This document shows positions 39,977-55,753 of a DNA stretch of 64,000 nt, one piece after another. Source of the DNA: an uncultured cyanobacterium. GTDB taxonomy: Bacteria > Cyanobacteriota > Cyanobacteriia > Pseudanabaenales > Pseudanabaenaceae. The position numbers and the translations under genes were made by a program. The DNA is taken from NCBI GenBank assembly GCA_963703315.1, contig OY969811.1, positions 972,728 through 1,036,727 of the forward strand, written 5' to 3'. Positions within the stretch are counted from its first letter, which is position 1. The number at the start of each line of letters is the position of its first letter. The notes beneath the pieces were generated by a model, which was given only the letters and a program-made list of their open reading frames with translations, searched no databases and was not told the DNA's origin.

Positions 39977-40050
39977 ACTTAAAGAGTGTAAGTCAATTAT
40001 AGTGATTTGCATACCTGATTTGTTAACAACCAACGCATTTGGACAAAATA

Positions 40051-40299: not shown

Positions 40300-40316
40300 A
40301 AGACATTGTTTCAGTT

Positions 40317-40421
40317 AAGTACCTCGGCTTAATAAAACCAAGAACCCAAATAAGCGGAATCGCCCGCTTCGCGGGCGATTCCGCTTATTTGGGTTTTATA
40401 TTTAATTATGCCTACCTACTT
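40317..40421. mobile_element. MITE-like element (AAGTA...TACTT ends) with a perfect 25-bp hairpin, GC-TTC-GC loop
   Basis: Hairpin 40343-40395; right flank GGGTTTTATATTTAATTATGCCTACCTACTT. Confidence 0.72.
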
Positions 40422-40498
40422 AGCTGTGGTGAGGGCGAAGACCTTGCCACAACTAGATCCTAAAAATTTCTATAAAGTTAATTCTCAGGAGAATCATT

Positions 40499-41197
40499 AT
40501 GCTTACTATTCGCAAATCAGAAGAAAGAGGTCATGCAAATCATGGTTGGCTTGATAGTTACCATACCTTCTCTTTTGCTAGTTATTACGATCCACAGCAT
40601 ATTGCTTTTCGCTCACTGCGGGTAATTAATCAAGACCAAATAGCTGGTGGGAAAGGATTTGGAACCCATCCCCATCGTGATATGGAAATTATTACCTATA
40701 TGCTCGATGGTGCTTTAGAACATAAAGACAGCATGGGCAATGGTTCTGTTATTCGGGTTGGTGATGTCCAAAGAATGAGCGCAGGTACTGGGATTACCCA
40801 TAGCGAGTTTAATCCTTCGGCAACTGAAACTGCTCATTTATTGCAGATCTGGATTTTGCCAAATCAAGAAGGTGTGAAGCCTAGTTATGAGCAAATCTCT
40901 TTTACAAGAGAAGAGAAGCTTAACCAATTGCGACTAATTGCTTCGCCCGATGGACGCGATCGCTCGGTTACGATTTACCAAGATGCCTATATCTATGCTT
41001 CGATTCTCGAAGATGGGGCAGAAGTGACGCATCTAGTCAATCAAAATCGCTATGCTTGGATACAGGTAGCTAGAGGTAGTGTATTAATAGGCGATCGCCT
41101 ATTAACTGGTGGTGATGCGATCGCTAGCGATCAGGCTGGTGATTTAAAATTGATTGCTCAAGGTAGTGCTGAAGTTCTAGTATTTGATCTAGCTTAA
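40499..41197 (+). CDS. Pirin family protein (YhhW-like)
   Basis: SYHTFSF, GFGTHPHRDMEI, MSAGTGITHSE and LQIW motifs. Confidence 0.94.
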   Translation: MLTIRKSEERGHANHGWLDSYHTFSFASYYDPQHIAFRSLRVINQDQIAGGKGFGTHPHRDMEIITYMLDGALEHKDSMGNGSVIRVGDVQRMSAGTGITHSEFNPSATETAHLLQIWILPNQEGVKPSYEQISFTREEKLNQLRLIASPDGRDRSVTIYQDAYIYASILEDGAEVTHLVNQNRYAWIQVARGSVLIGDRLLTGGDAIASDQAGDLKLIAQGSAEVLVFDLA

Positions 41198-41243
41198 TTT
41201 ATTTTAAAGAAGTGCGGCTAAGCCGCACTTCTTTAAAATAAAT
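41197..41243. terminator. Hairpin, perfect 22-bp stem, GC-TAA-GC loop
   Basis: ATTTATTTTAAAGAAGTGCGGC-TAA-GCCGCACTTCTTTAAAATAAAT. Confidence 0.8.
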
Positions 41244-41271
41244 CGTAAAACATTTAGAGACTGAATAACCT

Positions 41272-42372
41272 GTGGGCGCAAGTAATCAAACTAATAGCAA
41301 CAAACCAAAGATTGTGTTAACAGGTGGCGGCACGGGTGGTCATGTTAGCCCTAACCTTGCTTTAATCCCATCACTTGAAGCTGATGGCTGGACAATTGAA
41401 TATATTGGCTCTCAGGAAGGGATTGAGAAACAATTAGTCGCAGAGGTGGGGATTCCCTATCACGGTATTTCGTCAGGAAAGTTACGGCGTTATTTTTCTT
41501 GGCAGAATTTCATCGATCCTTTTAAAGTGATTAAAGGGATATTCGATGCTTATTTTGCGATCGCCAAAATCAAGCCTCAAGTAGTATTTTCTAAAGGTGG
41601 TTTTGTCACGGTTCCTGTGATTTTTGCGAGTTGGTTGCAACGGATTCCTGTAGTTATCCATGAGTCTGACTTCTCTTCGGGCTTAGCCAACCGCTTATCG
41701 ATTCCCTTCGCCAAAAAAGTATGTGTGACATTTCCCGAAACGGTTAAGCATTTAGCGAAATATGCCAACAAGGTCAAGCATACAGGCTTACCCATCCGAT
41801 CCGACATTCTCAAAGGTAATGCGGAAAAAGGTCGAGAATTTTGTGATTTTAATCAAGATTTACCAATTATATTTGTAGTTGGTGGTAGTACTGGTTCCGC
41901 TAAAATCAATCAAGCAGTACGTTCTATTTTAGATGTGCTTACGCAAAGCTATCAAGTAGTTCATGCCTGCGGTAAAGGAAATCTTGATATTAATCTAAAA
42001 GATTATCCAAACTATCAACAATTTGAATATTTGGGGAAAGAATTAGCCGATGTTTTAGCATCTGCTGATTTGGTTGTGTCGCGATCGGGGGCTAATGCTG
42101 TGTTTGAGTTTCTGACTTTACGCAAACCTAATTTATTGATTCCTCTATCCAAATTGTCTAGTCGCGGTGATCAGATTCTCAATGCGAAGTCTTTTCAATC
42201 TCGTGGTTATAGTGCCGTTCTCTTTGAAGAGGATCTGACTAGTGAGAGTTTATTAAAAGCGATCGCCGATCTCGATAGTCGGCGTGATGAGTACATTCAG
42301 AATATGCATCAAAGTGAAGATGCGAATGCGATCGCCCAAATTGTTACTTTACTCAAAGAATTTAAGCATTAG
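41272..42372 (+). CDS. murG: Lipid II N-acetylglucosaminyltransferase MurG
   Basis: GGGTGGH, SGKLRRY, IHESD, GGSTGS and RSGA motifs. Confidence 0.9.
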   Translation: MGASNQTNSNKPKIVLTGGGTGGHVSPNLALIPSLEADGWTIEYIGSQEGIEKQLVAEVGIPYHGISSGKLRRYFSWQNFIDPFKVIKGIFDAYFAIAKIKPQVVFSKGGFVTVPVIFASWLQRIPVVIHESDFSSGLANRLSIPFAKKVCVTFPETVKHLAKYANKVKHTGLPIRSDILKGNAEKGREFCDFNQDLPIIFVVGGSTGSAKINQAVRSILDVLTQSYQVVHACGKGNLDINLKDYPNYQQFEYLGKELADVLASADLVVSRSGANAVFEFLTLRKPNLLIPLSKLSSRGDQILNAKSFQSRGYSAVLFEEDLTSESLLKAIADLDSRRDEYIQNMHQSEDANAIAQIVTLLKEFKH

Positions 42373-42392
42373 AGGGATGCACAGTAAAAGAT

Positions 42393-42423
42393 TTTAGTGG
42401 CGCGGCGAAGCCGCGCCACTAAA
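42393..42423. repeat. Hairpin, 14-bp stem, GC-GAA-GC loop
   Basis: TTTAGTGGCGCGGC-GAA-GCCGCGCCACTAAA between convergent genes. Confidence 0.85.
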
Positions 42424-42441
42424 TATCTGGTTCTTTATAGT

Positions 42442-42780
42442 TCAAGAAATCCTTTCTATTTCCATTAAAATTCGATCAAAGATACTTCTTAAAGTTATTT
42501 TTTCAATAGGAACTATATTTGGCATTGCGTCTGGCTCACCCAAAGAATTACTGTCTAAGAAAAGGCAAGTCTCATTATCGTCCATTAGCCATTCAACTTG
42601 TAATGATTCCTCGCGATCGCCTAATTCGCTTTGATGTCCCTCACGAAATTCCAGAACCACGTCTGACTTGTAGCCTTCAACAGGGATAAACGCAGTTAAC
42701 TTAGCGTGATAGCGGAGGTCAAAATCAACAGGGTATCCAAGATTTATTAAAGCTTGCTCTACGAGAGCAAAGGTAGCCAT
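42442..42780 (-). CDS. Hypothetical acidic protein (112 aa)
   Basis: Sole ORF filling the gap; no motif recognised. Confidence 0.6.
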   Translation of the reverse strand: MATFALVEQALINLGYPVDFDLRYHAKLTAFIPVEGYKSDVVLEFREGHQSELGDREESLQVEWLMDDNETCLFLDSNSLGEPDAMPNIVPIEKITLRSIFDRILMEIERIS

Positions 42781-42886
42781 ATTTCACTAAACCTATGTAA
42801 ATACATACTAAAAGCTTAACATCGTGTGAGAGTATTTTTTCTTGTCAAAAATTCGTCTATAATTCTGTTGATAGCCTAACAAAACT

Positions 42887-42988
42887 AAGTAGCTAAGCAT
42901 AATTAAAAATCAAAACTAAAACCTGTGGCGCACGCTGTCCGTGCGCCACAGGTTGTGGGGTTTTATATTTAATAGCGCCCAGCTACTT
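42887..42988. mobile_element. MITE-like element with AAGTAGCT...AGCTACTT termini and a 15-bp internal hairpin
   Basis: 8-bp perfect terminal IR; hairpin 42920-42954; flank shared with 40317-40421. Confidence 0.75.
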
Positions 42989-43045
42989 ATCAGTCAAAAT
43001 TATCAGTTGTTAATTCAGCGCAAAGCTTTATAAATTATCCCTTAA

Positions 43046-43762
43046 GTGACTATGGAAGTCTTGATTTTTTTTGCCACTCTTTGGGTGCTTTGGCTAATCA
43101 GTTCGCGTTGGTGGAAACGTCAGATTATTTTACCTTTGGCGATTATTGGACTAATTTATGTAATTATCACCTCTCCCGTCGGACTTACCCTAGTCAATCA
43201 AGGATTAACGTTTACAATTCCTCAAGACTCTGGTGAGAAAGTTGATGCAATCGTTGTTTTGGGAAGAGGTGCTTCACTGCGTCCTGAGCGGGTAGAATTA
43301 GCTGCTGAACTTTGGAAACAGGAACGCGCACCGATAATTTTTATTAGTGGGATGCTAGATGCAGAAGAAATAATTGCAGACTTGCAAGGGTATGGAATTT
43401 CTAAATTGAAACTAAGTGGTGAACGTTGCTCTCAGAATACTGAAGAGAATGCTCAATATACGACAGCAGTGCTTTATCCTCAAGGCATTAAAAAAATCTT
43501 ACTTATAACAGATTCGCCTCATATGCTGCGATCGCGAACCCTATTCCAAAATTATGGGTTTCAGGTTGTTTCTTACCAACTTCCTTTGACTGAACAATGG
43601 AGTGCTAATCAACAACTCATAGCTATGCTAAGAGAATATGCAGGTTTGATGAGTTATCATTGGCAAGGTCGTTTTCGCCAACGTACCCCAGACGAGATTA
43701 CAAATCCATCGGAACAAGTTAAATATCGCCTAAAGGAATGGAATTGTTACCTAAAGTCCTAA
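43046..43762 (+). CDS. YdcF/DUF218 family protein
   Basis: DAIVVLG, FISG, SQNTEENA, LITDSPHMLRS and REY motifs. Confidence 0.9.
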   Translation: MTMEVLIFFATLWVLWLISSRWWKRQIILPLAIIGLIYVIITSPVGLTLVNQGLTFTIPQDSGEKVDAIVVLGRGASLRPERVELAAELWKQERAPIIFISGMLDAEEIIADLQGYGISKLKLSGERCSQNTEENAQYTTAVLYPQGIKKILLITDSPHMLRSRTLFQNYGFQVVSYQLPLTEQWSANQQLIAMLREYAGLMSYHWQGRFRQRTPDEITNPSEQVKYRLKEWNCYLKS

Positions 43763-43809
43763 TTAAAAACCTATGGCGCACGCTGCGCGTGCGCCAGATA
43801 CTAACTATC

Positions 43810-43837
43810 AAAACAAGGGGCTTAAGCCCCTTGTTTT
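43810..43837. repeat. Perfect 28-bp palindrome AAAACAAGGGGCTTAAGCCCCTTGTTTT; degenerate copy near 46457-46478
   Basis: Seen directly; the two copies flank the radical SAM gene. Confidence 0.8.
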
Positions 43838-43842
43838 AAGAA

Positions 43843-46410
43843 TTACCGCATTGATTCGCGATGGACTTTGACTAATTTAATTTCATCCTCTTCTATTAAA
43901 TACTTATTCATCATGTAGACCACATACTCAGGCTTGAGATTGCTGTCGGGTTTACAACTACCCATAAAATGGATGGTGGGCAGTTCAGGATCAGGATTGA
44001 TCACGTTAATCGTAAAAATGCGATCGCGTAATTCAATCATTTGATCACGACCTGATTTGGACTTCTTCGGCATTTGGATCGAAGTTGCCGCTAAGACGCA
44101 GTAACTGGCTCCCTCTAGTAAATCCATAATGTCCGCCGCATTGCGCTCTTTAGGCGTGATGAAAGCACAGGTAAGCGTATACTCAGCAACCTCTAGCATT
44201 GCATCTAAAGAAGGCGCATTTACAGGTACTTCCTCGATCGCATAGATCGGCAAGTCAGCATCTAGTTCTTCTTGGAAACGCTGTTGAAAATCCTCGACAG
44301 GAATTACCTTAGTTAGCTCAAAATCCACAAACTCAGCACTGCTAGTTTGACCAAGAGGCAAAGCCTTCGCGATGGAAATGCGGGGTAATGGATTAAAGCC
44401 TTCCGTATGGGCAACGGGTAACGCCGCCCGCCTAGCCGCCCGTTGGAAGAATCGATAGAGATCCAAATGGGAAATTAAACTCATGTCGCCAAGCTTGCCA
44501 AACTTGAGGCGAATACGCTGCACTCTTGGCGGCACGATCGGTTTCTCTAGGGAAATGGGTGGTACTTCGGGCGGTGGGATGACTTCATTATGTCCAAATT
44601 CAGGTCCACAGACACCACACTCTGAGCAACCACCAAAGGAACAATCGGGAATTACTTGCGCCGCGATCGCCCTTTCCCAATCTTCGATCAGCCATTGCTT
44701 ATCAATCCCTGTATCAATGTGATCCCAAGGCAGAGGCTCGGACATTTTTAGTGATGGCGTATCCCAGACTAAACCTGCTTCAGCGATCGCCTGCGTCCAT
44801 GCCCCAAAAGCTTTCTCCGTATTCTCAAACCATGAGTCAAATCCTGCCCCCAGTTGCCATGCGCGATACAGCACCTTACCAAGACGGCGATCGCCACGCC
44901 CGACAAAATCCTCCATCGCACTGATGCGAACCTCGGTATAGTTGACCTTCACGCCACTCAAGCGGCGAAACTCTTGACGTAATAATTTCTGCTTCCGCAC
45001 AAATTCGCCACTAGAAACAGTATGCCACTGGAAAGGAGTATGGGGCTTGGGCGTGAAGTTAGAAATAGTCAAGTTAAAGGAAATCTTCTTCCGTCCCTTT
45101 TGCGAACATTCCTGTTGCAACCATTCCACTGTATTCACAATACCAATTACATCTTCATCGGTTTCTGTGGGTAAACCAATCATGAAATAGAGTTTGACCT
45201 TATCCCAACCTTCTGTATATGCAGTTTTAATCCCTTGCAATAGCTCATCATCAGTCAAGCCCTTATTAATCACATCCCGCAAGCGCTGTGTACCTGCCTC
45301 TGGTGCAAAGGTTAAGCCCTGTTGCCGACCATCACCACTACGCAGCATATGCGCTATGTTCTCATCAAAGCGATCGACTCTTTGACTCGGCAATGAGAGG
45401 GTAACGTGTTCATCTTTAAAGCGATTCTTAATCTGGACTCCCACCGATGGCAAAGCAAGATAATCAGAACAAGAGAGGGAAAGTAAAGAGAACTCATTAT
45501 AACCAGTTTCTCTGATTGCTTTCTCAATCGTATCGACCACTTTCTCTGGATCAACATCACGGGCAGGACGGGTCAGCATCCCCGGTTGGCAGAATCGACA
45601 GCCTCGCGTACAGCCGCGCCTGATTTCGATGGTTAAGCGATCGTGTACAGTTTCCACTAAAGGAACTAAGCCGATACTATGCTCAGGCATGGGAGTGGCG
45701 ACACGACGCAGGGCGCGAGGGGAAACATTACTACGATTGGGAGTGATTGCGCCTGTTTTCTCATCCATGTCGTAGAATTCGGGTACATAAACTCCATTTA
45801 CCTCATTGGCAAGATCAAGAAGAGTTTCGCGGCGAGGTTTCCCTGCGAGTTTGGCAGCTTTAATGACTTCCCCAATTTCAGGCAATAACTCTTCACCATC
45901 ACCAAGGGCAAAGAAATCGAAAAAGTCCGCATAGGGTTCGGGATTAGAAGTCGCCGTCTGTCCTCCTGCAAAGATTAATGGACATTCTTCAATGCTTAAT
46001 TCACTACGTTCTTGCCATGTCATCGGAATATTGGCAAGATCAAACATTTCGAGAACATTGGTTGCGCCTAGCTCATAGCTGAGACTAAAGCCTAAAATGT
46101 CAAATTCCCGCAGCGATCGCTTGGACTCCACGGCAAACAAATCCGTTTTAGTTTCGCGTAACTTTGTTGAGAGATCAGATGCTGGTAAATAGGCGCGATC
46201 GCATAGCTGACCATCTTTAGAATTAATAATGCTGTAAAGGATGATATGCCCCAAGTTGGACGCACCTACCTCATAGATTTCGGGATAGGTAAGCGACCAA
46301 CGCACGATCGCCTGATCCCAAGGTTTATGCACTGCGCCAAACTCGTTGCCTAAATAACGAGCAGGTTTGAGGATTTCGGAGTTAAGTAACTGTTCTACGG
46401 GTACAGGCAT
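43843..46410 (-). CDS. B12-binding radical SAM protein fused to a DUF2344-like domain (TIGR03960/TIGR03936-type)
   Basis: KPARYLGNE, RRGCTRGCRFC (CxxxCxxC), KLYFMIGLP, and C-terminal RIRLKFGK...ISHLDL..F.RA.RRA. Confidence 0.9.
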   Translation of the reverse strand: MPVPVEQLLNSEILKPARYLGNEFGAVHKPWDQAIVRWSLTYPEIYEVGASNLGHIILYSIINSKDGQLCDRAYLPASDLSTKLRETKTDLFAVESKRSLREFDILGFSLSYELGATNVLEMFDLANIPMTWQERSELSIEECPLIFAGGQTATSNPEPYADFFDFFALGDGEELLPEIGEVIKAAKLAGKPRRETLLDLANEVNGVYVPEFYDMDEKTGAITPNRSNVSPRALRRVATPMPEHSIGLVPLVETVHDRLTIEIRRGCTRGCRFCQPGMLTRPARDVDPEKVVDTIEKAIRETGYNEFSLLSLSCSDYLALPSVGVQIKNRFKDEHVTLSLPSQRVDRFDENIAHMLRSGDGRQQGLTFAPEAGTQRLRDVINKGLTDDELLQGIKTAYTEGWDKVKLYFMIGLPTETDEDVIGIVNTVEWLQQECSQKGRKKISFNLTISNFTPKPHTPFQWHTVSSGEFVRKQKLLRQEFRRLSGVKVNYTEVRISAMEDFVGRGDRRLGKVLYRAWQLGAGFDSWFENTEKAFGAWTQAIAEAGLVWDTPSLKMSEPLPWDHIDTGIDKQWLIEDWERAIAAQVIPDCSFGGCSECGVCGPEFGHNEVIPPPEVPPISLEKPIVPPRVQRIRLKFGKLGDMSLISHLDLYRFFQRAARRAALPVAHTEGFNPLPRISIAKALPLGQTSSAEFVDFELTKVIPVEDFQQRFQEELDADLPIYAIEEVPVNAPSLDAMLEVAEYTLTCAFITPKERNAADIMDLLEGASYCVLAATSIQMPKKSKSGRDQMIELRDRIFTINVINPDPELPTIHFMGSCKPDSNLKPEYVVYMMNKYLIEEDEIKLVKVHRESMR

Positions 46411-46413
46411 AGA
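46305..46413 (-). repeat. 109-bp direct repeat, copy 1 (functional 5' end of the radical SAM gene)
   Basis: 102/109 identical to 50486-50594 by hand alignment. Confidence 0.95.
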
Positions 46414-46518
46414 TGTTTTTCAAAATTTGATCTAGCTTTATTTTACATTGGCATAGACAAGAGGCTTAAGACCCTCGTTAATCAAAGGTTCACTAAGCTG
46501 TAATTGTATTCATTTCTC

Positions 46519-47085
46519 TTAAAATGTCACATCTTCATAAAGATCGGCAAATTTCCCTTCAAAGTTGATGCTCGACAATTGGAAACTGTCTTGCTCTCCA
46601 GAGTATGACTTCAAGAACCAAACACCTTCTTCGTTGCGGCGAAAACAATCAAGGCGTTGACGTTTGGTGTTGACTAGAACATATTCTTCTAGAGTTTCTA
46701 TTTGTTGATAATCAGCAAATTTGTCACCGCGATCAAATGCTTCTGTAGACTTTGATAGAACTTCGATAATTAGTTTAGGATATCTCTTTTGATTTTGTGA
46801 TTGGATATCTCTAGGATCGCAAGTCACCATCACATCTGGATAATAAAAGCGGTTTAATGAATCGATTCTCGCTTTCATGTCAGAAATATAAACACGACAG
46901 CCTGATCCTCGTAAATGATTACGAATCATCATAAAAGCATTACTTGCGATCGTGACATGAGTATCGTTTGCGCCAGCCATTGCATAAACATATCCATCGA
47001 TATATTCGTGTTTAATTGCGCTTTGTTCTTCCATTTCGAGATATTCGTCTGGAGTTATGTAATCAAATTTTGGTGTGGCAATCAT
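46519..47085 (-). CDS. Uma2 family protein
   Basis: KHEYIDG, YYPDVMVTCD, LIIEVLS and DRGDKFADY motifs. Confidence 0.93.
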   Translation of the reverse strand: MIATPKFDYITPDEYLEMEEQSAIKHEYIDGYVYAMAGANDTHVTIASNAFMMIRNHLRGSGCRVYISDMKARIDSLNRFYYPDVMVTCDPRDIQSQNQKRYPKLIIEVLSKSTEAFDRGDKFADYQQIETLEEYVLVNTKRQRLDCFRRNEEGVWFLKSYSGEQDSFQLSSINFEGKFADLYEDVTF

Positions 47086-47113
47086 ATTTAGTTACTTATA
47101 GTTTTTGATTAGT

Positions 47114-47173
47114 TATAGCTGTCGCCAGTCTTGTTAGAACATAAAACCAAAAAAGCAAGTGACTACAGCTATA
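47114..47173. mobile_element. Short MITE-like element (TATAGCTGT...ACAGCTATA) lacking the internal hairpin
   Basis: 9-bp terminal IR; left end matches TATAGCTGTCGCCA at 56939. Confidence 0.65.
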
Positions 47174-47202
47174 TCTAAGAATAATGAAATCAGGGGCATA
47201 GC

Positions 47203-47256
47203 GCGATCGCCATATAGCGCTTTTAGCTCTCGATTGAGTTCGTTAAGTACTAGCAT
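47203..47256 (-). pseudogene. Remnant of a second MNT gene 5' end, similarity ending at HIP1
   Basis: 47203-47249 is 42/47 identical to 47887-47933; it reads LNELNRELKALYGDR versus LNELKRELQALYGDR. Confidence 0.8.
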
Positions 47257-47260
47257 AGTT

Positions 47261-47638
47261 TTATTGCTCATTCAAAATTTTCTCTACTTCGCCAATAAAA
47301 TCTTTTGCTTTCTCTAAAAGCACTTCTGCTTCAGCTAATGTTCCCGTAAAGTCTGCATCATAGTCACTCAATTGTCTTAGCTCGTAAGCATCGCTTAATA
47401 TTTTTGCCCATTCGGGAGAGAATTTTCCTGTCTTCACAAAATGCTGTCCAAATAGGCGAATTGTACCTTTATGTGTGGAAGTATCTAGGTTTTGGGATAG
47501 CAATAAAGCTTTGGTTGCGTAATATATGGAATAATAGGAACGCGAGAGGTAAGTGCGATAACGCTCACGCTCTAATAAAAGTTCTGCTATTTCTAGTTCT
47601 TCTAGAGATAAAGAAAATAGTTTTTTATGTTCGTTCAT
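47261..47638 (-). CDS. HEPN domain protein (MNT-HEPN pair)
   Basis: SRSYYSIYYATKALL, THKG and RQLSDY (Rx4-6Y/H-type) motifs. Confidence 0.9.
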   Translation of the reverse strand: MNEHKKLFSLSLEELEIAELLLERERYRTYLSRSYYSIYYATKALLLSQNLDTSTHKGTIRLFGQHFVKTGKFSPEWAKILSDAYELRQLSDYDADFTGTLAEAEVLLEKAKDFIGEVEKILNEQ

Positions 47639-47964
47639 AATTCAATTCCTTCTTTTCTAATATTTCTTAAAAACTCAACATCTCTTTTGCTGAAGTCTTC
47701 TTCGGTGACAGGGATAATAGAGACAAGTTCATCACGTTCTAGTAATATTTTGACACGCAGGTTGGACATATAGGAGATCTCTTGTACTTGAGATACGGGG
47801 CTTTTGAGTACGGCTAGTAAGTCAATATCTGAGTCTGGAGTGGCTTCGCCTCTGGCGTGGGAACCAAATAGAATTAATTTAACAAGGCGATCGCCATATA
47901 GTGCTTGCAACTCTCGCTTGAGTTCGTTAAGTATTGGAGTAATGCTCGTTAAAGTGGTAGTCAT
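47635..47964 (-). CDS. Minimal nucleotidyltransferase (MNT)
   Basis: LFGSHARG...SDIDL; ATGA overlap with the HEPN gene. Confidence 0.92.
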   Translation of the reverse strand: MTTTLTSITPILNELKRELQALYGDRLVKLILFGSHARGEATPDSDIDLLAVLKSPVSQVQEISYMSNLRVKILLERDELVSIIPVTEEDFSKRDVEFLRNIRKEGIEL

Positions 47965-48141
47965 TTTCTAAGGAAAGTAACGATAAAATTCTTTGCGGTG
48001 TAATGTGCGGATGACTTCTACTGTGTTACCCGAAATTTCTATGCCAATGCGATAGTCACCTACTCGAATACGATAACGGGTTGAATATCCTTGCATGGCT
48101 TTAATATTCGGTAGTTCCTGCAAGTTCTGAGCTTCAGGCAA

Positions 48142-49434
48142 TAGGGCAACCGCACACGTTTCTTAACAAACTAGCGAACATTTCTTAACGAGGAAAAAAG
48201 GGAGAAACGGGAGAATTGAGGATATTTAGAAAGATAAGTCCAAAATGCTAGCAACAGTCAGTCCCGTCGGATTAATCGAAACCCACTTTGGGAACTTGCA
48301 AGATCCCAGAGCAGCACACAGTATCCTGCATAAGCTACTCGACATATTGATAATCACGATTTGTGCAGTGATCTGTGGAGCCGATAACTTCGTAGCAATC
48401 GCCGAATATGGCAAAGAGAAAGAAGAATGGTTAAAGACATTTTTGGAATTAGCAAACGGCATACCGTCAGTAGATACATTCGAGAGATTATTTGCGAGAC
48501 TGAAGCCAGAAGCATTGCAAAAAAGCTTTATTAGCTGGATGGAAGCAGTCCATGAATCCACCGACGGAGAATTGATAAACATAGATGGCAAAACCCTGAG
48601 AGGAGCAAAGGAAGCAGGAAATTCGCGTAGTCTGATTCATATGGTGAGTGTGTGGTCAGCATCACAACATTTGGTATTGGGACAGCAAAAAGTGGACGAG
48701 AAATCCAATGAAATAACAGCGATTCCATCATTGCTAAAAATGTTAGCGATACGAGGTTGTGTGGTGAGCATAGATGCAATGGGATGTCAGACCGAAATCG
48801 CGAAAACAATCATCGAAGAGGGAGCAGATTATGTGTTAGCACTGAAAGGCAATCAAGGTAATCTCCATAAAGATGTGCGTGAACTATTTACCTCTGCACG
48901 AGAACAGAACTTCAAAAATATTGAACATCAGTTCTATGAAACGGTTGAGAAAGGACATGGGCGCATTGAAACTCGTCGCTATTGGACAATGGGTAATACC
49001 GAATACTTAATCGGTGCAGAGAAATGGATAGGTTTGAAAAGTATTGGTATGGTTGAATCAGAGCGCATTATAAATGGAATTATTTCTACTGAGCAGCGAT
49101 ACTATCTGCTTAGTCTTGAGAGTGATGTCCACAGATTTTCCCAATCTGTCAGAAATCACTGGAGTATTGAAAATCAACTACATTGGATTCTTGATGTTGG
49201 TTTTGGTGAAGATGCTTCGCAATCCTGCCGAGGCTATATTGCCGAAAACTTGGCTGTTATACGTCATATCAGTTTAAATTTGTTGTCAAGAGATAAAAAC
49301 AGTAAGGTCGGTGTCAAGACAAAACGTCTTAAAGCTGGCTGGAACAACAACTATCTTAAGGATATCCTGAGTACCTTAAACATAGTCGCTGTCTAAATCT
49401 CGTTAATTGTTAAGAAACGTGTGCGGTTGCCCTA
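48142..49434 (+). mobile_element. ISAs1-family insertion sequence (1293 bp)
   Basis: Perfect 28-bp TIR (TAGGGCAACCGCACACGTTTCTTAACAA) and 10-bp TSD CTTCAGGCAA at 48132-48141 and 49435-49444. Confidence 0.97.
48245..49396 (+). CDS. ISAs1 family DDE transposase (intact ORF)
   Basis: DPR...H.L, IDGK, KSNEITAIP, IDAMGCQ, LKGNQ, GHGRIE and HWSIEN.LHW.LD motifs. Confidence 0.97.
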   Translation: MLATVSPVGLIETHFGNLQDPRAAHSILHKLLDILIITICAVICGADNFVAIAEYGKEKEEWLKTFLELANGIPSVDTFERLFARLKPEALQKSFISWMEAVHESTDGELINIDGKTLRGAKEAGNSRSLIHMVSVWSASQHLVLGQQKVDEKSNEITAIPSLLKMLAIRGCVVSIDAMGCQTEIAKTIIEEGADYVLALKGNQGNLHKDVRELFTSAREQNFKNIEHQFYETVEKGHGRIETRRYWTMGNTEYLIGAEKWIGLKSIGMVESERIINGIISTEQRYYLLSLESDVHRFSQSVRNHWSIENQLHWILDVGFGEDASQSCRGYIAENLAVIRHISLNLLSRDKNSKVGVKTKRLKAGWNNNYLKDILSTLNIVAV

Positions 49435-49541
49435 CTTCAGGCAAGGTTGTAAAGGCAATTTCAGAGATGCGTTGATATACTGATGTGCCTTTCAGATTTT
49501 TGAGATCTTTCAAAAATGACTGACGATAATTCACTTCCATT

Positions 49542-49757
49542 TTAATCCTCTAAAAAAGCTAGAGCTTCTGCATGGGAGTAAAGAGGAGTTTTTTTACCTT
49601 CATCCATTGCTTTATTGAGACAATAATCTTCTATAGCTTCGCTAAGGTCTTCTAGGGAGGCGTTATCAATGGGTAGGAGTTGTCTCCAAATTGCGATGGG
49701 GATGACAACGGCGGTTGTTTGTCCTTCTTTGTTAGTTAGATATTCAAGGTCTAGCAT
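49542..49757 (-). CDS. Putative antitoxin upstream of relE
   Basis: 71-aa acidic protein (EGQTTAVVIPI...IEDYCLNKAMDE) whose stop is 1 nt before the relE ATG. Confidence 0.8.
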   Translation of the reverse strand: MLDLEYLTNKEGQTTAVVIPIAIWRQLLPIDNASLEDLSEAIEDYCLNKAMDEGKKTPLYSHAEALAFLED

Positions 49758-49847
49758 GATTGACTCTCTTGTTGATGTTTTTGTGTAAACTTTCTTTTAT
49801 TTTATAACTTTAGCTAAGGGCGATCGCTTAGTCATGTATTTACAAAA

Positions 49848-50330
49848 TTACGGGAATGGAAAGCCTCCATGTTTGGTAATAATTTGATCGATGTCGCTCA
49901 TGATCTCGATGGTTTCTCCCAAGATGGAAATGATGTTTTGATAATGAAAGAGGTCGTCAAAGCTGAGTTCGCGTCCTCCCACATACCAGCGAAATTCTAA
50001 ATGATCCGTTAAAATCAAATTCCCTAAAGCATTAAAATAACGCTGCATTTGGTTCTTCTTTTCCAAACTTTTTAGCGAAATTCCAATATCCTTAGCCTCA
50101 AGATGTCCAACCTCTAACGCCCCCTGTCCAATCCAAAAATCTGGCGCACCGCAAGCAATCTGCTTCGGCTCATTCACCGCCAAAATATCATTACCAAAAG
50201 ACTCAAGCAATCTCTTCAACGCAGGACGATAGGTATGCTCCGTTGCATTCCCCTTTTGATAAATCTGCGTCACATCTTGCAAATAAGCTTGAATTTGATT
50301 AGTCATTATGTTAGTTGTAGAACCACTCAT
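49848..50330 (-). pseudogene. Internally deleted type ISP/IIG-like restriction-modification gene (N- and C-termini fused in frame)
   Basis: N-terminal ATEHTYRP..GAPDF..LEAK..TDHLEFRWY is joined to the C-terminal-type GRELSFDDLFHYQNII..LGETIEIM. No MTase motifs. Confidence 0.75.
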
Positions 50331-50474
50331 ATCAAAACCCTGCTTATCTTTAGCTCATATTCTAAAGCGGTGTCATTTATACTATGACCTAAACTCGAAA
50401 TATATCATTCAAATCTAGTTTAGCCTTTCTACCTGACTATTTGCTGAATATAGCGATCGCTAATCTATTCATCA

Positions 50475-50594
50475 TCAATACCAAGCGATCGCCTGATCCC
50501 AAGGCTTATGTACTGCGCCAAACTCGTTACCCAGATAACGGGCAGGTTTGAGGATTTCGGAGTTAAGTAACTGTTCTACGGGTACGGGCATAGA
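50475..50594 (-). pseudogene. Truncated duplicate 5' end of the radical SAM gene (35 identical codons, then AWY*); direct repeat copy 2
   Basis: ATG 50591; homology ends at GCGATCGC 50485-50492; all 7 differences are synonymous. Confidence 0.95.
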
Positions 50595-50654
50595 GTTTCA
50601 TCAATTTTTGAGCTATGTGTATTTTACATTTAGCGCGATCGCGATTAGTTATAA

Positions 50655-50799
50655 TCATCCCAATGCCAGATGTTTTTGCGTAAGTCCTGAATTTAATAAC
50701 GGTAGCGTAAACGAAAAAGTACTACCTTTCCCAAGAGTACTCTCGACCCAAATTTTACCTTCATGTTGTTCAACGATTTTACGACAGATGGTGAGCAAT
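50655..50799 (-). pseudogene. C-terminal HATPase_c fragment of a sensor histidine kinase
   Basis: [32 protein letters not shown], preceded by an in-frame TGA. Confidence 0.8.
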
Positions 50800-50966
50800 C
50801 AGAAATCCCCATAACTGGTTGGATGAACTGGCTTCATTTTGTTGATGGGAATTCAGATTTTGCAGAATTGGCACAATCATTTTGGGCTGATTTTTTTGCG
50901 CGATTTGGAACTCTTACGTTTAGACATGAATTGATTCTACGCTTACATCGCTTTGCGCTCAAATCC

Positions 50967-51003
50967 AAAACCGAAAGGGTTGCTTTGCAACCCTTTCGGT
51001 TTT
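50967..51003. terminator. Hairpin, 17-bp stem, GC-TTT-GC loop, after pcyA
   Basis: AAAACCGAAAGGGTTGC-TTT-GCAACCCTTTCGGTTTT. Confidence 0.8.
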
Positions 51004-51004
51004 C

Positions 51005-51733
51005 TTATGCTATTGAGTCAAATAACATTGAAGTCATATAACGATCAGCCCATTCTTCACCAAAGGACTTTTCGAGAACTCGCCGAGTTTTATCGTTTTG
51101 TTGTTGCTTAGCGCAATAATATTGCTGACCTGCGATCGCATTGGCAACATCCGTTTCAGAAGTTAATGGCTCGATGTTGTTAGCAATCTGACAATGAATA
51201 GTCAAAAAATCTTGAACTCTTTGCAAAAATGCTGCTTCTTCCTCGGCTCCTATAGGGCGAACAAATAAACAAAACTCAGAAAAAATATCTGCCCATTCAG
51301 GTAGAGCGCGAGGATTTGTAAATTCTATATTTTTTAAGTTGGCTAAGCTCTGTTGGTAATTAGGAGGTAAAGATTTTTCTCGATTACTAGGTGATAGATC
51401 GGCGATCGCAGCGCTAATTCCTCCACGTCCTCCTACAATATCTGCCCCAAAAATTGGTAAGGCATACTCAGGATTGGGGAACATGACACAATGCAAAATA
51501 TCTAAGCCATTACCCACCTGAGCTAGCTCTAGATGCAGCTTGCGAAATTGCTTGGTTTGATAACAACAATTTTCAATTACTAACTTCTCTCCCTCTAAAT
51601 GCCCTTCAATGTAGCCTAAGCCTTCTGGGATAATATATGGCTCAAGACTTAGATGATTTTTCCAAATTTCTTCAATGGAGTTAGCTAGTTTCTGAATTAA
51701 ATGATGTTGGCGAGTTCGCAATGATGATGACAT
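51005..51733 (-). CDS. pcyA: Phycocyanobilin:ferredoxin oxidoreductase
   Basis: [26 protein letters not shown] and [16 protein letters not shown] motifs. Confidence 0.97.
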
Positions 51734-52328
51734 AAAACTTTTTATCTAAAATCAACTAAATAAACTAATAAATTAAAGGGAGAAACAATATATTTGCTTT
51801 GTTAGTAAGTATTCCTAGTTTTGAATATCGTCTAAAAAAGCTTCAATGCTTCAATTAGACAATCAAAATAAGGTACTAATGCAGTTTGCTGCTCTAGCTG
51901 TAGTCGCTTGAGACTGTCGATTTTGATGCTTGTTAAACCAAGAATCATAGCATCAAGAGGTACTTGTAGCTCTTGGTAAAGTTGCTGCATCAGCGATTCT
52001 AATCATTGCATCTTTAGTTTTTCATGCCTAGACCCTTAGCTGAGATTCATGAAATGTAATGGTAAATGGCACTGGTCAGTTAATTATGGTTCTCGCCAAC
52101 GCGAGTATAGACTTCATCTCGATGGTCATATCTGAACCTGCGGGGGCAGTGAGATTCCATTGCTGAGTCTTTGCATAAATTGACCAATGCCCTATTTGAA
52201 AAAATTAGGCAAAAAACGGCTTGATATAGCACATCTCTATATTGTTAATCTGTCACTATTCTTTTGAGGTATGAAAAGCTGTATATTGGCTAAAGTGACA
52301 CATTTATAGATAAAAAACTTAAAAAGCC

Positions 52329-53396
52329 TTGATAGCAACTCCCGTTAAACCAACGACAAGACGACCTGTATTTCCTTTCACCGCCGTGATCGGACAGGAA
52401 GAGATGAAGCTCGCCCTGTTGCTCAACGTCATCGATCCGAAAATCGGTGGAGTAATGGTCATGGGCGATCGCGGTACAGGCAAATCCACCACTGTTCGCG
52501 CCCTAGCCGACCTCCTACCCGAAATTGAAGTTGTCGCTGATGATCCCTTTAGCAGCCATCCCACTGACGGAGACCTGCAAAGTGAAGAAGTTCGCCAACG
52601 CATTGCCAATGGCGAAAAGCTACCAGTTACCACCAAACAAGTAATCATGGTGGACTTGCCCCTCGGTGCAACCGAAGACCGTGTGTGCGGCACAATTGAC
52701 ATCGAAAAAGCACTATCCGAAGGGGTGAAAGCTTTTGAAGTCGGACTACTTGCCAAGGCAAATCGAGGCATTCTCTACATTGATGAAGTCAATCTCCTTG
52801 ACGACCATCTCGTCGATGTGTTGTTAGACTCCGCCGCATCTGGTTGGAATACCGTTGAACGTGAAGGGATTTCCATCCGTCACCCTGCTCGCTTCGTCCT
52901 AGTTGGTTCAGGCAACCCTGAAGAAGGCGAGTTACGTCCACAATTGCTCGATCGCTTCGGTATGTATGCCGAAATTAAGACTGCGCGAGATCCTGAATTG
53001 CGTTTACAAATAGTCGAAAATCGCACCACCTTTGATAACAATCCCCACGGGTTTCTATCTGAAAAGTCTGAGCAACAATCCGAAAAGCAAAATCAAATCG
53101 TGAGAGCGCAGACTATTCTCAATGATGTCAATATCGATCGCGATCTACGTCTCAAAATCTCCACAGTTTGCGCTGACTTGAATATTGATGGTTTGCGTGG
53201 TGATATTGTGACCACCCGTGCAGCTAAGGCTTATGCAGCTTCGGAAGGTCGGAAAGAAGTCGAAGTAGATGATATCAAAGCCGTAATTGGTCTCTGCCTA
53301 CGTCACCGTCTTCGCAAAGATCCTCTTGAATCCATTGATTCTGGCTACAAAGTTCTCAAAACCTTCAATCAAGTATTTGGTATTGAGGAAGAATAG
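52329..53396 (+). CDS. chlI: Magnesium chelatase ATPase subunit I
   Basis: GDRGTGKST, LPLGATEDRVCG, YIDEVNLL and DGLRGD motifs. Confidence 0.97.
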   Translation: MIATPVKPTTRRPVFPFTAVIGQEEMKLALLLNVIDPKIGGVMVMGDRGTGKSTTVRALADLLPEIEVVADDPFSSHPTDGDLQSEEVRQRIANGEKLPVTTKQVIMVDLPLGATEDRVCGTIDIEKALSEGVKAFEVGLLAKANRGILYIDEVNLLDDHLVDVLLDSAASGWNTVEREGISIRHPARFVLVGSGNPEEGELRPQLLDRFGMYAEIKTARDPELRLQIVENRTTFDNNPHGFLSEKSEQQSEKQNQIVRAQTILNDVNIDRDLRLKISTVCADLNIDGLRGDIVTTRAAKAYAASEGRKEVEVDDIKAVIGLCLRHRLRKDPLESIDSGYKVLKTFNQVFGIEEE

Positions 53397-53404
53397 AAGT
53401 TATT

Positions 53405-53430
53405 GGGGGGCAATTTATGAATTGTCCCTA
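53405..53430. repeat. Degenerate GGGGCAATT(C/T)ATGAATTGCCCCTAC REP-like palindrome; half copy near 63092
   Basis: Seen directly after chlI and after pnp. Confidence 0.6.
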
Positions 53431-53518
53431 CTTCTTAAAACGCCTGAAGCAAGTTGTGGCAAGAATCGCCATAACTTGCTTCTGTTTTTTGTCATCACAA
53501 GACTAGCGACAGCTATAT

Positions 53519-53803
53519 ATGGAAGAATATAGATGGAATGATGAGAAAAATAGGTATTTACGGCAAACAAGAAATATTTCTTTTGAGGATATAGTCGAAG
53601 CCATTGAAAATGGTCAGATACTTGGAATAGTTGGAACATCAAGTCTAGAAAAGTATCCAAATCAGTCTGTTATAATTGTTAGAATTAAAGACTACGTTTA
53701 TTGTGTTCCTTTTATCAAAGATGGCTCTGTAACTTTTTTAAAGACTATTTTTCCTAGTCGAAAAATGAAAAAAAGATTTCTAGGAGATCAAGAGGATGAA
53801 TAA
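53519..53803 (+). CDS. BrnT-like toxin
   Basis: YRWNDEKN...RNISFEDIV...YVYCVPF...FLKTIFPSRK. Confidence 0.85.
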   Translation: MEEYRWNDEKNRYLRQTRNISFEDIVEAIENGQILGIVGTSSLEKYPNQSVIIVRIKDYVYCVPFIKDGSVTFLKTIFPSRKMKKRFLGDQEDE

Positions 53804-54113
53804 CTTGAACTTTGACAATATGAATATTGATGAACTTACTATCTCTCTCCAGTTAGATCAAGAAGAACGGGATTTACTAGAAAGTATAGAAAATAATGAA
53901 TGGGTCAGTATTCTTGATGAAAAAGAAGAAATAAAACGTTTACAGGAAATGGCTATAAGTCAGATGGCTAGACAAAAGATCGAAGTTCAGATGTCAATAC
54001 AGGATACTGATAAGATCAATGGTTTGGCTAATCAACTTGGTAAATCTGTATCTAGTTTTGCTCAAGATATTCTTCATAAATATTTGAAAGGTGAACTAGT
54101 CGAGAAAACGTAG
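53796..54113 (+). CDS. Cognate antitoxin (C-terminal RHH/CopG-like)
   Basis: 8-nt overlap with the toxin; LDQEERDLLESIE...ILHKYLKGEL. Confidence 0.8.
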   Translation: MNNLNFDNMNIDELTISLQLDQEERDLLESIENNEWVSILDEKEEIKRLQEMAISQMARQKIEVQMSIQDTDKINGLANQLGKSVSSFAQDILHKYLKGELVEKT

Positions 54114-54115
54114 TT

Positions 54116-54230
54116 TATAGCAAAGCAAGAGTTGGTTAGTCCAAACTAAAACCCAAGAAGCGAGTTGCGGCGCGGAGCGCCGCAACTCGCCTTCTGGTTT
54201 TGTGTCCTAAGCAAAACTTTTTTTGCTATA
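54116..54230. mobile_element. MITE-like element (TATAGCAAA...TTTGCTATA) with an internal GC-GGA-GC hairpin
   Basis: 9-bp terminal IR; hairpin 54148-54201 is related to 56973-57023. Confidence 0.72.
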
Positions 54231-54253
54231 CAAAATACTTGTGTTTAGTCTTG

Positions 54254-55264: not shown

Positions 55265-55303
55265 CTGTAGAGACTGATAGCACTGAGTATCCTCTTAAGA
55301 AAA

Positions 55304-55680: not shown

Positions 55681-55753
55681 AATTGATAAACCTCATGAGA
55701 TTTAAATGTAGAAAGTGACCTAAGCTCACTTTCTACATTTGGTAATTAATACT

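Follow-up and report, generated by a model that had tools for sequence, protein, structure and literature searches.

The window, as we call the whole 64,000-nt stretch of Pseudanabaena chromosome analysed here, contains the start of one radical SAM (rSAM) gene twice, with an island of toxin-antitoxin (TA) and other genes between the two copies. How could such an arrangement arise where no integrase is at hand? There is no tyrosine recombinase within about 700 kb of the island (the nearest lies ~730 kb away) and no tRNA or tmRNA gene in 40000-56000, in agreement with the sequence-only reading of the locus, which had called it integrase-free.

A repeat search of the window delimited a direct repeat of 145 nt in two copies with 88% identity (46305-46449 and 50486-50630), and this pair is its only occurrence in the 4.57-Mb genome. 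The coding part corresponds to codons 1-35 of the rSAM gene. The features concerned are:

43843-46410, minus strand: full-length rSAM gene (855 aa; Pfam Radical_SAM_N2, Radical_SAM and DUF2344)
46305-46449, minus strand: repeat copy 1, rSAM codons 1-35 plus 39 nt upstream
50486-50672, minus strand: stub module, 'promoter 2' (about 75-80 nt) plus rSAM codons 1-35

Over the coding part the copies differ at exactly seven sites, every one a synonymous transition (codon pairs CCT/CCC, GCT/GCC, TTA/CTG with two changes, GGC/GGT, GTG/GTA and AAA/AAG); under neutrality, seven out of seven would be synonymous with a probability of 3e-5 to 1.5e-4. Both this duplication and a similarity extending into the two promoters had been noticed from the sequence alone. 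The repeat search and the codon comparison confirm the former, and TATTTTACATT, common to the upstream regions of both copies, bears out the latter. The truncated copy (stub) starts with an ATG at 50589-50591 and forms an open reading frame of 38 codons, whose stop is located in the tail of another gene, X (see below); its promoter 2 holds a further HIP1 octamer at 50635-50642. It had also been seen correctly that the stub is cut at HIP1, an 8-base palindrome abundant in cyanobacteria: it ends in GCGATCGC at 50485-50492, and at the equivalent position of the full gene copy 1 carries GCGATCGT (46304-46311, plus strand). rSAM orthologues with 88-98% amino acid identity were found in all 24 genomes of the genus searched, and the full-length gene is the homologous anchor of the rearrangements described here.

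The two copies had been proposed to be alleles from different lineages, with the prediction that they would separate in a tree, and our comparisons agree with this. The stub is a single nucleotide away, over 106 nt, from the rSAM allele at work in the sister species G003, while the haplotype of copy 1 is common to G020, G002 and G018 and is not that of G003. In a tree of the gene body G000 and G003 are sisters (100/99); in a tree of the 106 nt the stub groups with this G000/G003 gene-body clade and copy 1 falls outside it, with weak support (90/76). Within the initial 600 nt of the full gene, 9 of 16 informative sites carry other-clade alleles vs. 7 of 51 (Fisher p=0.0013), a 'foreign' tract without a sharp boundary. 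The view that the repeat copies are alleles which diverged under purifying selection in different lineages is thus supported.

The far side of the joint was traced to the following elements:

50485-50492: HIP1 octamer GCGATCGC, crossover point of rSAM codons 33-35 with the HIP1 of the X tail
50317-50484, minus strand: DNA natively 3' of gene X (match to G041:C167, tail also in G050)
20505-21257, minus strand: the genome's own copy of gene X, a 250-aa Uma2-family paralogue, now 23 kb from rSAM
46411-46518, minus strand: Uma2-rSAM spacer, of which 46411-46488 is the 'promoter 1' allele as in G006 and G007

The 20 nt beyond the HIP1 of the stub are the final codons of X, an origin that is new relative to the sequence-only reading. 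Segment 50317-50484 consists of this X tail (TTGGTATTGATGATGAATAG, 50465-50484), ATTA, a second HIP1 (50453-50460) and a promoter/5'UTR region. The same X tail is found in G050. Because the relative G041 (C167) has an intact X directly followed by the same 176 nt (92% identical), the joint is one of an X HIP1 with the HIP1-like octamer of rSAM:

rSAM: ...GATCAG GCGATCG T GCG
X of G041: ...AAAGTT GCGATCGC TTGGTATTGATGATGAATAG ATTA GCGATCGC TATATTCAG
stub: ...GATCAG GCGATCGC TTGGTATTGATGATGAATAG ATTA GCGATCGC TATATTCAG

The tail of the genome's own X bears the same HIP1 (CTGCGATCGCTTGGCATTAATGA...). The earlier proposal of an illegitimate end at HIP1 therefore stands, with the second parent identified. 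The order Uma2-X-promoter-rSAM, present in G019, G002, G001, G006 and G007, is ancestral in the genus, which makes X the ancestral upstream neighbour of rSAM. Upstream of the working rSAM gene X has been deleted, since promoter 1 still includes the last two X codons of G006 and G007 (CTTTGA) and the X terminator hairpin. An X-less Uma2-rSAM arrangement also occurs in G041:C173.

The joint is neither unique nor fresh. The same connection of stub, HIP1 and X tail is present in Pseudanabaena cinerea (G005), and in decayed versions in G009 and G020; the stub module has the same right end in these three genomes. The joint shared by four species may go back to a single origin or may have recurred. 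In two other relatives, joints of the same topology coincide exactly with the two remaining HIP1 sites in the 5' end of rSAM: in G046 rSAM codon ~100 is connected to X codon ~181 at HIP1, and in G059 codon ~71 is connected to a HIP1 five nt past the stop of Uma2. Both are independent of the joint in the window. The right-hand unit of G046 (X' tail, DUF559-like gene, BrnTA, rSAM) is 91.7% identical over 2.3 kb to the arrangement of G050, which is a donor-like state; stub and full copy of G046 differ by 17 synonymous and 5 non-synonymous codons. The 5' stub of G003, the 9-codon stub of G041:C173 and both types of 3' stub have joints outside HIP1. Three of five 5'-stub joints lie inside HIP1 on both parents, with an estimated chance probability of <1e-5 at a HIP1 density of one per 555 bp. 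Genome-wide, HIP1 is found at 7.9% vs 4.3% of low-copy repeat ends, an enrichment of only about 1.8-fold (P=0.018). Because relatives show two more independent joints, HIP1 sites here would be natural break-and-join points for slotting in TA and defence genes. The role of HIP1 may be just that of the most frequent 8-nt microhomology, or an activity specific to HIP1 may be involved.

The island and its left flank are composed as follows:

46519-47085, minus strand: Uma2-family gene (188 aa; PF05685)
47203-47249, minus strand: second stub, codons about 9-24 of another MNT allele, in ORF 47134-47271
47261-47964, minus strand: TA pair of MNT (47635-47964; Pfam NTP_transf_2) and HEPN (47261-47638; Pfam HEPN)
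47968-48141, minus strand: C-terminal part of a ParE/RelE toxin gene (Pfam ParE_toxin; N-terminal part at 49435-49540)
48142-49434, plus strand: ISAs1-family insertion sequence (IS; 1293 bp, transposase 48245-49396)
49542-49757, minus strand: RelB-like antitoxin gene (Pfam PF18506)
49848-50330, minus strand: collapsed restriction-modification (RM) gene
50655-50883, minus strand: histidine-kinase gene remnant that flanks the stub on the left
51005-51733, minus strand: pcyA-like ferredoxin-dependent bilin reductase gene (Pfam Fe_bilin_red)

The gene content between the copies, an RM remnant, RelB, ParE/RelE, MNT, HEPN and Uma2 according to Pfam and open reading frames, is as had been described; the IS, which makes up one third of the island's '4.1 kb', had been omitted. 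Its inverted repeats of 28 nt are perfect, and its target duplication measures 10 bp (CTTCAGGCAA, 48132-48141 and 49435-49444). It exists in seven identical copies in the genome and splits the ParE gene, which is uninterrupted in G044, G045, G003, G042 and G053. The IS sits inside the island and has no relation to the island's borders. The RM gene has no Pfam match; compared with G044, G060 and G053 it shows an in-frame internal deletion of 2.4 kb (joint about 49975-49977), and its first five codons are borrowed from the gene after X in G041 (joint about 50306-50317). The MNT stub is 89% identical to the intact MNT gene over 47 nt (47887-47933), the homology ending at GCGATCGC in both. In the kinase remnant ~1.15 kb has been lost internally (joint 50788-50792) relative to G009, G020 and G022. 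The present island is a later patchwork, formed by RM collapse, X deletion and IS insertion into ParE, with several further joints without HIP1.

Uma2 had been regarded as donor cargo, which does not hold. Orthologues of it (83-93% aa identity) are located upstream of rSAM in G019, G020, G002, G005, G050 and G041 and downstream of the TA block in G044, G045 and G042, where RM-RelB-ParE-MNT-HEPN-Uma2 is a conserved block; the MNT-HEPN block is conserved across many genomes of the genus. Uma2 and the TA block represent synteny that is old and genus-wide, and not exotic cargo. Nor did the expectation of strains with pcyA adjoining rSAM come true in any relative among the 28 loci examined. The pcyA-like gene is a patchily distributed paralogue beside the deleted kinase gene, with 90% nucleotide identity to G009, 79% to G020 and G022 and only 73% to G003. 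Neither a genome with an empty site between these flanks nor a donor turned up among the relatives; individual pieces have best matches of only 84-93% identity. As none of the relatives shows the order X tail - TA block - Uma2 - (deleted X) - rSAM, a single event does not suffice.

Probably, if by no means certainly, the locus is a hotspot where cassettes are repeatedly swapped, and its structure the product of one-armed (homology-facilitated) illegitimate recombination in which HIP1 microhomology guided the joining. The stub would be the resident rSAM 5' end, displaced when diverged DNA of another Pseudanabaena lineage replaced the gene start. Incoming DNA with X tail, cargo, promoter and rSAM may have paired via the conserved rSAM body for one homologous crossover, and its non-homologous end may have been joined at an identical HIP1 microhomology of 7-8 nt; the outcome would be an 'insertion with long target duplication'. 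The finished structure would possess homology on both sides, with the stub and promoter to the left and the gene body to the right. Ordinary homologous recombination could consequently carry it from one species to another, and the allele remaining in the stub would each time be that of the recipient. Such spread would explain the same joint in four species, the intact stubs with synonymous-only differences, the different cargo behind the joint and the decayed older copies. The position upstream of rSAM serves as a slot where TA and small nuclease genes are exchanged.

An unlikely alternative is intragenomic unequal crossover between two chromosome copies of a polyploid cell. HIP1 in X would have recombined with the HIP1-like octamer of rSAM, some 210 nt away, giving a tandem duplication of X tail, promoter and rSAM 1-35; cargo would have been inserted later between the units and the working 5' end overwritten by a foreign allele through homologous recombination. 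All three HIP1 joints have the head-to-tail topology of a tandem duplication, the two sites are near each other in the ancestral arrangement, the mosaicism of rSAM along its length makes a later allele replacement plausible, and excision between short HIP1 repeats functions even in E. coli according to work cited in PMC4390886. However, a bare tandem duplication without cargo was seen in no genome, and in G046 the second X piece is far from the resident X allele (52% vs 79% aa identity to the query), with the cargo confined to the second unit, matching G050. Moreover, the upstream flank of the window's stub is not X, and more steps are needed than for a single one-armed integration. Less likely still is a Campbell-type event, in which X tail, cargo, promoter and rSAM 1-35 were excised or circularised by HIP1 x HIP1 recombination and inserted by one homologous crossover within the segment from promoter to codon 35. 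The connection rSAM35-HIP1-X tail is the exact circle junction expected, the repeat stops at defined positions (50484-50665 in four genomes), and a single crossover naturally duplicates the homology segment. But the stub is not chimeric, being 1 nt from G003 across its entire 106 nt, the excess of other-clade alleles runs to about nt 600, past the duplicated segment, and 145-180 nt of homology at 88% identity is a poor substrate.

We give as little credence to the idea that a PvuI-type enzyme cut the CGATCG core of HIP1 in incoming DNA and chromosome (e.g. at unmethylated sites), with ligation of the compatible ends and homologous recombination at the other end. In each of the three HIP1 joints the crossover falls inside the octamer, cyanobacteria often possess CGATCG methylases and cognate endonuclease-like genes, and HIP1 methylation alters transformation (PMC4390886; bioRxiv 10.1101/2024.09.10.611283), but GCGATCGT at rSAM codon 35 retains CGATCG and so does not discriminate, and several other joints at the locus lack it. 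A degraded island that targeted the rSAM 5' end with a replacement gene start, like phage 21 or e14 at icd, and has since lost its integrase is very improbable, and we disfavour it. Such elements classically leave a duplicated gene end with synonymous divergence, and several species use the same site; on the other hand, the tail of the ancestral neighbour gene and no element arm lies beyond the joint, joint positions differ (three), integrase is absent from all cargoes examined (G005, G046 and G050 lack any recombinase), and the tRNA and tyrosine recombinase searches given above offer no target or enzyme nearby.

Gene-end replacement by integrases is known from phage 21 and e14 at icd and from tRNA-targeting islands. 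There, as here, displaced and working gene ends differ mainly synonymously; at our locus, however, integrase, fixed att core and element arm are missing and the flank is the neighbouring gene's own tail. Further parallels are offered by insertions with long target duplication (Nobusato et al. 2000; Furuta, Abe & Kobayashi 2010, PMC2853133), reported without mobility genes mostly from naturally competent bacteria, and also from Microcystis. Shared features are an insert that measures a few kb and brings no mobility gene, a flanking direct repeat far exceeding transposon target duplications (145-182 nt here) that is single-copy in other genomes, and a cargo of defence and addiction genes. The present locus differs in having TA pairs and an RM remnant but no intact R-M pair, in that both parents of the illegitimate joint were identified, both being HIP1 sites, and in that the repeat copies are different alleles and several species share the joint.

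Homology-facilitated illegitimate recombination is known from Acinetobacter, Streptococcus and Pseudomonas stutzeri. In natural transformation it was reportedly described by de Vries and Wackernagel in 2002. It likewise combines one homologous anchor (here the rSAM body) with a single illegitimate joint, formed at a short stretch of GC-rich microhomology (7-8 nt), placing foreign DNA beside the anchor. Our case was deduced from genomes and not seen to happen; its joint is internal to the anchor gene, so that a stub is left, and the microhomology is a genome-wide iterated palindrome instead of a chance match.

As for HIP1 itself, a HIP1-linked deletion at the smt locus of Synechococcus is said to have been found by Gupta in 1993. 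HIP1-linked deletion or recombination was also described by Robinson et al. 1997 and Akiyama et al. 1998 (as cited in PMC4390886), and HIP1-linked excision and recombination as well as HIP1-enhanced transformation have been reported (PMC4390886; bioRxiv 10.1101/2024.09.10.611283). In these events breakpoints lie in two HIP1 copies and one hybrid octamer remains, as in the window. Those were laboratory deletions or plasmid events, whereas the outcome here is duplication and gene capture in natural chromosomes, recurring in the genus.

The radical SAM gene of this Pseudanabaena (rSAM, 855 aa) is accompanied by a truncated second copy of its own 5' end, which lies beyond an insert of 4.0 kb and is joined, at the abundant cyanobacterial octamer HIP1, to the tail of another gene. 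That gene, designated X, belongs to the Uma2 family (250 aa) and ancestrally stood between Uma2 and rSAM. The relevant features of the window are listed below; G000 denotes the genome studied here and G001 to G060 those of genus relatives.

46305-46449 and 50486-50630, both minus strand: direct repeat in two copies (copy 1 and copy 2), 145 nt, 88% identical
43843-46410, minus strand: working rSAM, 855 aa, with Radical_SAM_N2, Radical_SAM and DUF2344; copy 1 is its start
47203-47249, compared with 47887-47933: codons about 9-24 of a further MNT allele, present as a 5' stub and forming a 47-nt repeat downstream of HEPN
48142-49434: ISAs1-family insertion sequence, 1293 bp, splitting the ParE/RelE toxin gene; perfect 28-nt inverted repeats, 10-bp target duplication CTTCAGGCAA
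49848-50330: 160-aa RM remnant, a large RM gene less 2.4 kb through an in-frame internal deletion, with a 3-nt overlap at 49975-49977
50655-50883: histidine-kinase remnant between the pcyA-like gene and the stub, about 1.15 kb lost internally relative to G009, G020 and G022; joint at 50788-50792
20505-21257: X of this genome, 23 kb from rSAM, adjoining a universal-stress-protein gene and with its own terminator hairpin

Copy 2 is a stub of rSAM codons 1-35 preceded by about 40-80 nt of upstream sequence. The 4.57-Mb genome holds no third copy of the 145-nt repeat, and in most of 48 genus genomes the segment from promoter to codon 35 is present once. Copy 1 and the stub differ at 7 of 105 coding nucleotides, every difference being a synonymous transition; the probability that all seven changes would be synonymous in a stub drifting neutrally is 3e-5 to 1.5e-4. 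In the stub, homology breaks off within GCGATCGC (50485-50492); in the working gene, within GCGATCGT. The sequence-only reading of this locus, which had described a synonymously diverged duplication of the rSAM 5' end in direct orientation, with the upstream copy cut off at HIP1, was thus correct on both points.

The two copies have different affinities. In a tree of the rSAM gene body, G000 and the sister species G003 group together (support 100/99). Of 106 nt in the stub, 1 departs from the working G003 allele, and the stub falls into a clade with G003, G012, G019, G005 and G022 (support 90/76). Copy 1 is 6 nt from G003 and 7 from the stub, and lies outside that clade with G020, G002, G006 and G018. 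These affinities fit the earlier proposal that the stub represents the recipient's allele and that the copies are alleles of different lineages, copy 1 carrying a foreign haplotype. This haplotype, together with the exclusively synonymous changes, rules out a duplication followed by plain drift. The stub of G005 (Pseudanabaena cinerea) is likewise nearest to its own lineage. The working rSAM is enriched in alleles of the other clade over its first 600 nt, where they account for 9 of 16 informative sites, compared with 7 of 51 in the remainder (p=0.0013); sliding windows and the informative sites alike gave nothing beyond this statistical excess, and no sharp recombination boundary.

The stub HIP1 is followed on its 3' side by 20 nt, TTGGTATTGATGATGAATAG, then by ATTA and a second HIP1. 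TTGGTATTGATGATGAATAG represents the last codons and the stop of an X-type gene. An intact X on contig G041:C167 reads ...AAAGTT GCGATCGC TTGGTATTGATGATGAATAG ATTA GCGATCGC TATATTCAG..., its tail and onward sequence being 92% identical to window positions 50317-50492 over 176 nt, and in G050 an X remnant is followed by the identical tail. Native X tails immediately 5' of rSAM (G002, G001 and G019) read GCGATCGC TTGGTATTTCTGA.... Hence the joint unites the HIP1-like site of rSAM codons 33-35 with the HIP1 of an X tail, two sites about 210 nt apart in the ancestral arrangement, and the crossover lies within their common GCGATCG.

The joint is not confined to this genome. The stub module (promoter 2, that is the region upstream of the stub, with codons 1-35 and HIP1; window 50484-50665) is present in three other species, G005, G009 and G020, and a scan of database contigs for the exact joint gave Pseudanabaena cinerea FACHB-1277 as its sole match. 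G005 has kept the X tail, but its cargo differs from that of G000 and encodes a PLD-like protein of 615 aa together with PIN and XisI-like proteins. In G009 and G020 the modules have decayed and contain stop codons, the X tail is gone and one HIP1 is kept. The X tail in G000 lies between two HIP1 copies, and a single HIP1 without the tail is the expected remainder of a deletion between them. Two further, independent joints were found in G046 and G059; the joint is no unique event. A pattern-search match to the joint in G060 proved to be the tail of an X-type gene rather than an rSAM stub.

G046 shows the order X, promoter, rSAM codons 1-101, X' residues 184-248, a DUF559-like gene, BrnTA and full rSAM. 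Its stub reads ...GAGTCAAA GCGATCGC TTCGGGCGTGAAGTT, the rSAM parent ...GAGTCAAA GCGATCGC TACGGG and the X parent ...TTGCCCA GCGATCGC TTTAGTCGTGAAGTT. Between stub and full rSAM, 17 codons differ synonymously and 5 non-synonymously. Over 2.3 kb the right-hand unit shares 91.7% identity with the arrangement of G050, a donor-like state. In G059, rSAM codons 1-72 stop at the HIP1 of codons 70-72 and are followed by CTATAATACCAACTAGATAGC..., the sequence 3' of a HIP1 situated five nt past the Uma2 stop. The microhomology GCGATCG(C/T) is common to the rSAM and X parents of the stub module and is found likewise in G046 and G059; at all three independent joints the octamer is present in both parents and as a single hybrid copy in the product. 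Within its first 300 nt rSAM has three HIP1 or HIP1-like sites, and together these joints have used all of them, each with a HIP1 of the upstream Uma2-X region.

HIP1 occurs 8231 times in the genome, or once per 555 bp, while composition predicts 34 copies. By our own estimate the chance that 3 of 5 5'-stub joints would fall within the octamer on both parents is well below 1e-5. No HIP1 marks the 5' stubs of G003 and of contig G041:C173, the collapse of the RM gene or the joint at its head, and the joints of both kinds of rSAM 3' stub (G003; G019 and G020) likewise lack it. The latter imply that stubs can form without HIP1. These 3' stubs are duplications of the rSAM 3' end (about codons 803-855) downstream of the gene (L033 2755-3000, L034 9213-9356 and L037 15993-16148 in the loci of G003, G019 and G020), with small genes between the copies, MNT in the case of G003. 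At the other end of the gene, G003 shows nested 5' replacements (L033 5986-8232): BrnT/BrnA stand immediately before a decayed rSAM stub, from which precisely the octamer GCGATCGT is missing; next come a TA pair of ParE-like type and then the working gene, preceded by a new promoter. BrnT/BrnA also immediately precede the working rSAM in G012 and G009.

In a genome-wide self-BLAST, ends of low-copy repeats carried HIP1 in 7.9% vs 4.3% of cases (only about 1.8-fold, P=0.018), and among 26 local repeat pairs inspected by hand about six further boundaries abut HIP1. This enrichment at repeat boundaries is suggestive, not decisive. Local direct repeats on contig G000:C1 with one boundary at or in HIP1 (2107179-2107288 / 2109179-2109288, 1869924 / 1870988, 3914108 / 3914819, 4014425 / 4015543 and 1633899 / 1634348) are candidates for further examples of the stub-forming process; at least in the 2107179 / 2109179 repeat, the end of a longer ORF recurs as a short stub in one copy.

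Uma2 (188 aa), X, a short promoter region and rSAM recur in this order in G019, G002, G001, G006 and G007. In G000 the spacer 5' of the working rSAM (46411-46488) retains two final codons of a G006/G007-type X along with its terminator, which means that X was deleted at that place; G041:C173 represents the same X-deleted state. The block RM-RelB-ParE-MNT-HEPN-Uma2 is syntenic in G044, G045 and G042, distant from rSAM. Both arrangements indicate that the Uma2 and TA genes have long belonged to the genus and are not exotic cargo supplied by a donor, as had been suggested. The strains predicted to have pcyA directly beside rSAM and no island did not appear either. A pcyA-like gene was found near rSAM in none of 28 loci from genus relatives, and an empty site, i.e. 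pcyA-rSAM adjacency with both original flanks, was absent from these 20 + 8 loci and from the surroundings of pcyA in 8 genomes. The pcyA-like gene is a paralogue of patchy occurrence, its nucleotide identity being 90% with G009 and 73% with the sister species G003, and the final 12 codons of the kinase remnant's ORF are supplied by the promoter-2 module. In G019 (L034 2700-2800 and 4190-4260) and G050 (L071 9300-9400) two promoter-core copies (ATC GCGATCGC GCTAA.TGTAAAATAGG...) bracket the Uma2-X pair, which therefore looks like an older insertion within a duplicated HIP1-containing segment.

Between the copies lie the RM remnant, RelB, the ParE/RelE toxin, MNT, HEPN and Uma2, as listed in the sequence-only reading, which had left out the ISAs1-family element. 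This element occurs in seven copies in the genome, all 100% identical, and has thus been active recently; its insertion has left the antitoxin without its toxin. The RM gene is intact in G044, G060 and G053, and the first five codons of the remnant (MSGST) derive from a gene 3' of X in G041. Both copies of the 47-nt MNT repeat start exactly with GCGATCGC, so that the MNT stub, too, is bounded by HIP1.

We regard homology-facilitated illegitimate recombination at HIP1, yielding an insertion with long target duplication, as the best and a reasonably probable explanation of this structure. Incoming diverged DNA, composed of X tail, cargo, promoter and rSAM, would have been anchored through homology somewhere in the rSAM body, while its opposite end was joined at a HIP1. 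Being homologous on either side, the finished structure could then pass among species via ordinary recombination, with the recipient's allele staying in the stub. Such passage would explain the common joint, the intact stubs with synonymous changes only, the differing cargoes and the decayed older copies; the module itself may have originated once or repeatedly. The sequences show both parents of the joint, its recurrence, the affinities of the alleles and the lack of recombinases, whereas the uptake of foreign DNA and the place of the homologous crossover are inferred. Of the mechanism first proposed, the homologous crossover combined with an illegitimate HIP1 joint survives, without its empty site, its origin of the cargo and its uniqueness.

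Other routes to the same structure can be envisaged. An unequal crossover within one genome, with the allele replaced afterwards, is an unlikely alternative. Restriction-assisted joining at CGATCG, the core of HIP1, seems improbable to us, and we give equally little credence to a circle closed at HIP1 and integrated in Campbell fashion. A degraded integrase island with gene-end replacement is scarcely credible. The island contains no site-specific recombinase, and the nearest tyrosine recombinase match (PF00589) is about 730 kb away, so that its description as integrase-free holds over about 700 kb; the only transposase in the insert is that of the nested element, which has its own 10-bp target duplication. 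Moreover, there is no tRNA gene nearby, and the joints occupy three different positions within the genus.

If recombination at HIP1 is the correct explanation, three independent joints within the octamer on both parents at one locus lead to a concrete, testable prediction: DNA with one homology arm and a distal HIP1 is expected to insert close to its anchor, at a HIP1 of the chromosome, with a gene stub as the residue. Toxin-antitoxin and defence cassettes might then move among cyanobacterial species without a mobility gene. A bolder proposal, which we consider doubtful, is that HIP1 is more than a handy microhomology and serves as a dedicated docking signal, so that in natural transformation a HIP1 close by on the chromosome would take up DNA with a single homologous arm, and that this amounts to phylum-wide integrase-free gene capture. 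Variable slots beside conserved genes would then be filled with toxin-antitoxin and defence cassettes, with gene-end stubs as the footprint.

Among the closest known processes is homology-facilitated illegitimate recombination, which the locus resembles in that the illegitimate joint lies at a short microhomology common to both parents. Natural joints with both parents identified are rare, and the question of what HIP1 does has remained open for about thirty years. HIP1-linked excision and plasmid recombination are known (cited in PMC4390886). HIP1 also raises transformation, a Chi-like or uptake role having been proposed, and recent bench work suggests that it promotes transformation and recombination by a route that is unknown (bioRxiv 10.1101/2024.09.10.611283; PMC13756078). 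Insertions with long target duplication, which involve neither a mobility gene nor a known mechanism, were defined on intact R-M pairs (PMC2853133); Furuta et al. (2010) required a direct repeat >30 bp that is single-copy in an insert-free genome, an insert <20 kb, and R and M homologues. The present structure agrees with these in its 145-nt repeat, its 4.0-kb insert and the lack of any other responsible mobile element, but differs in carrying TA pairs and a collapsed 160-aa RM remnant instead of R and M homologues. The mechanism class therefore fits, although the RM-specific part of the definition does not. What is new is that both parents of a joint map to HIP1, and do so at three independent joints of one locus. 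New as well is a route along which homologous recombination alone could pass such an insertion on; the result also offers a mechanism for the unexplained insertions with long target duplication.
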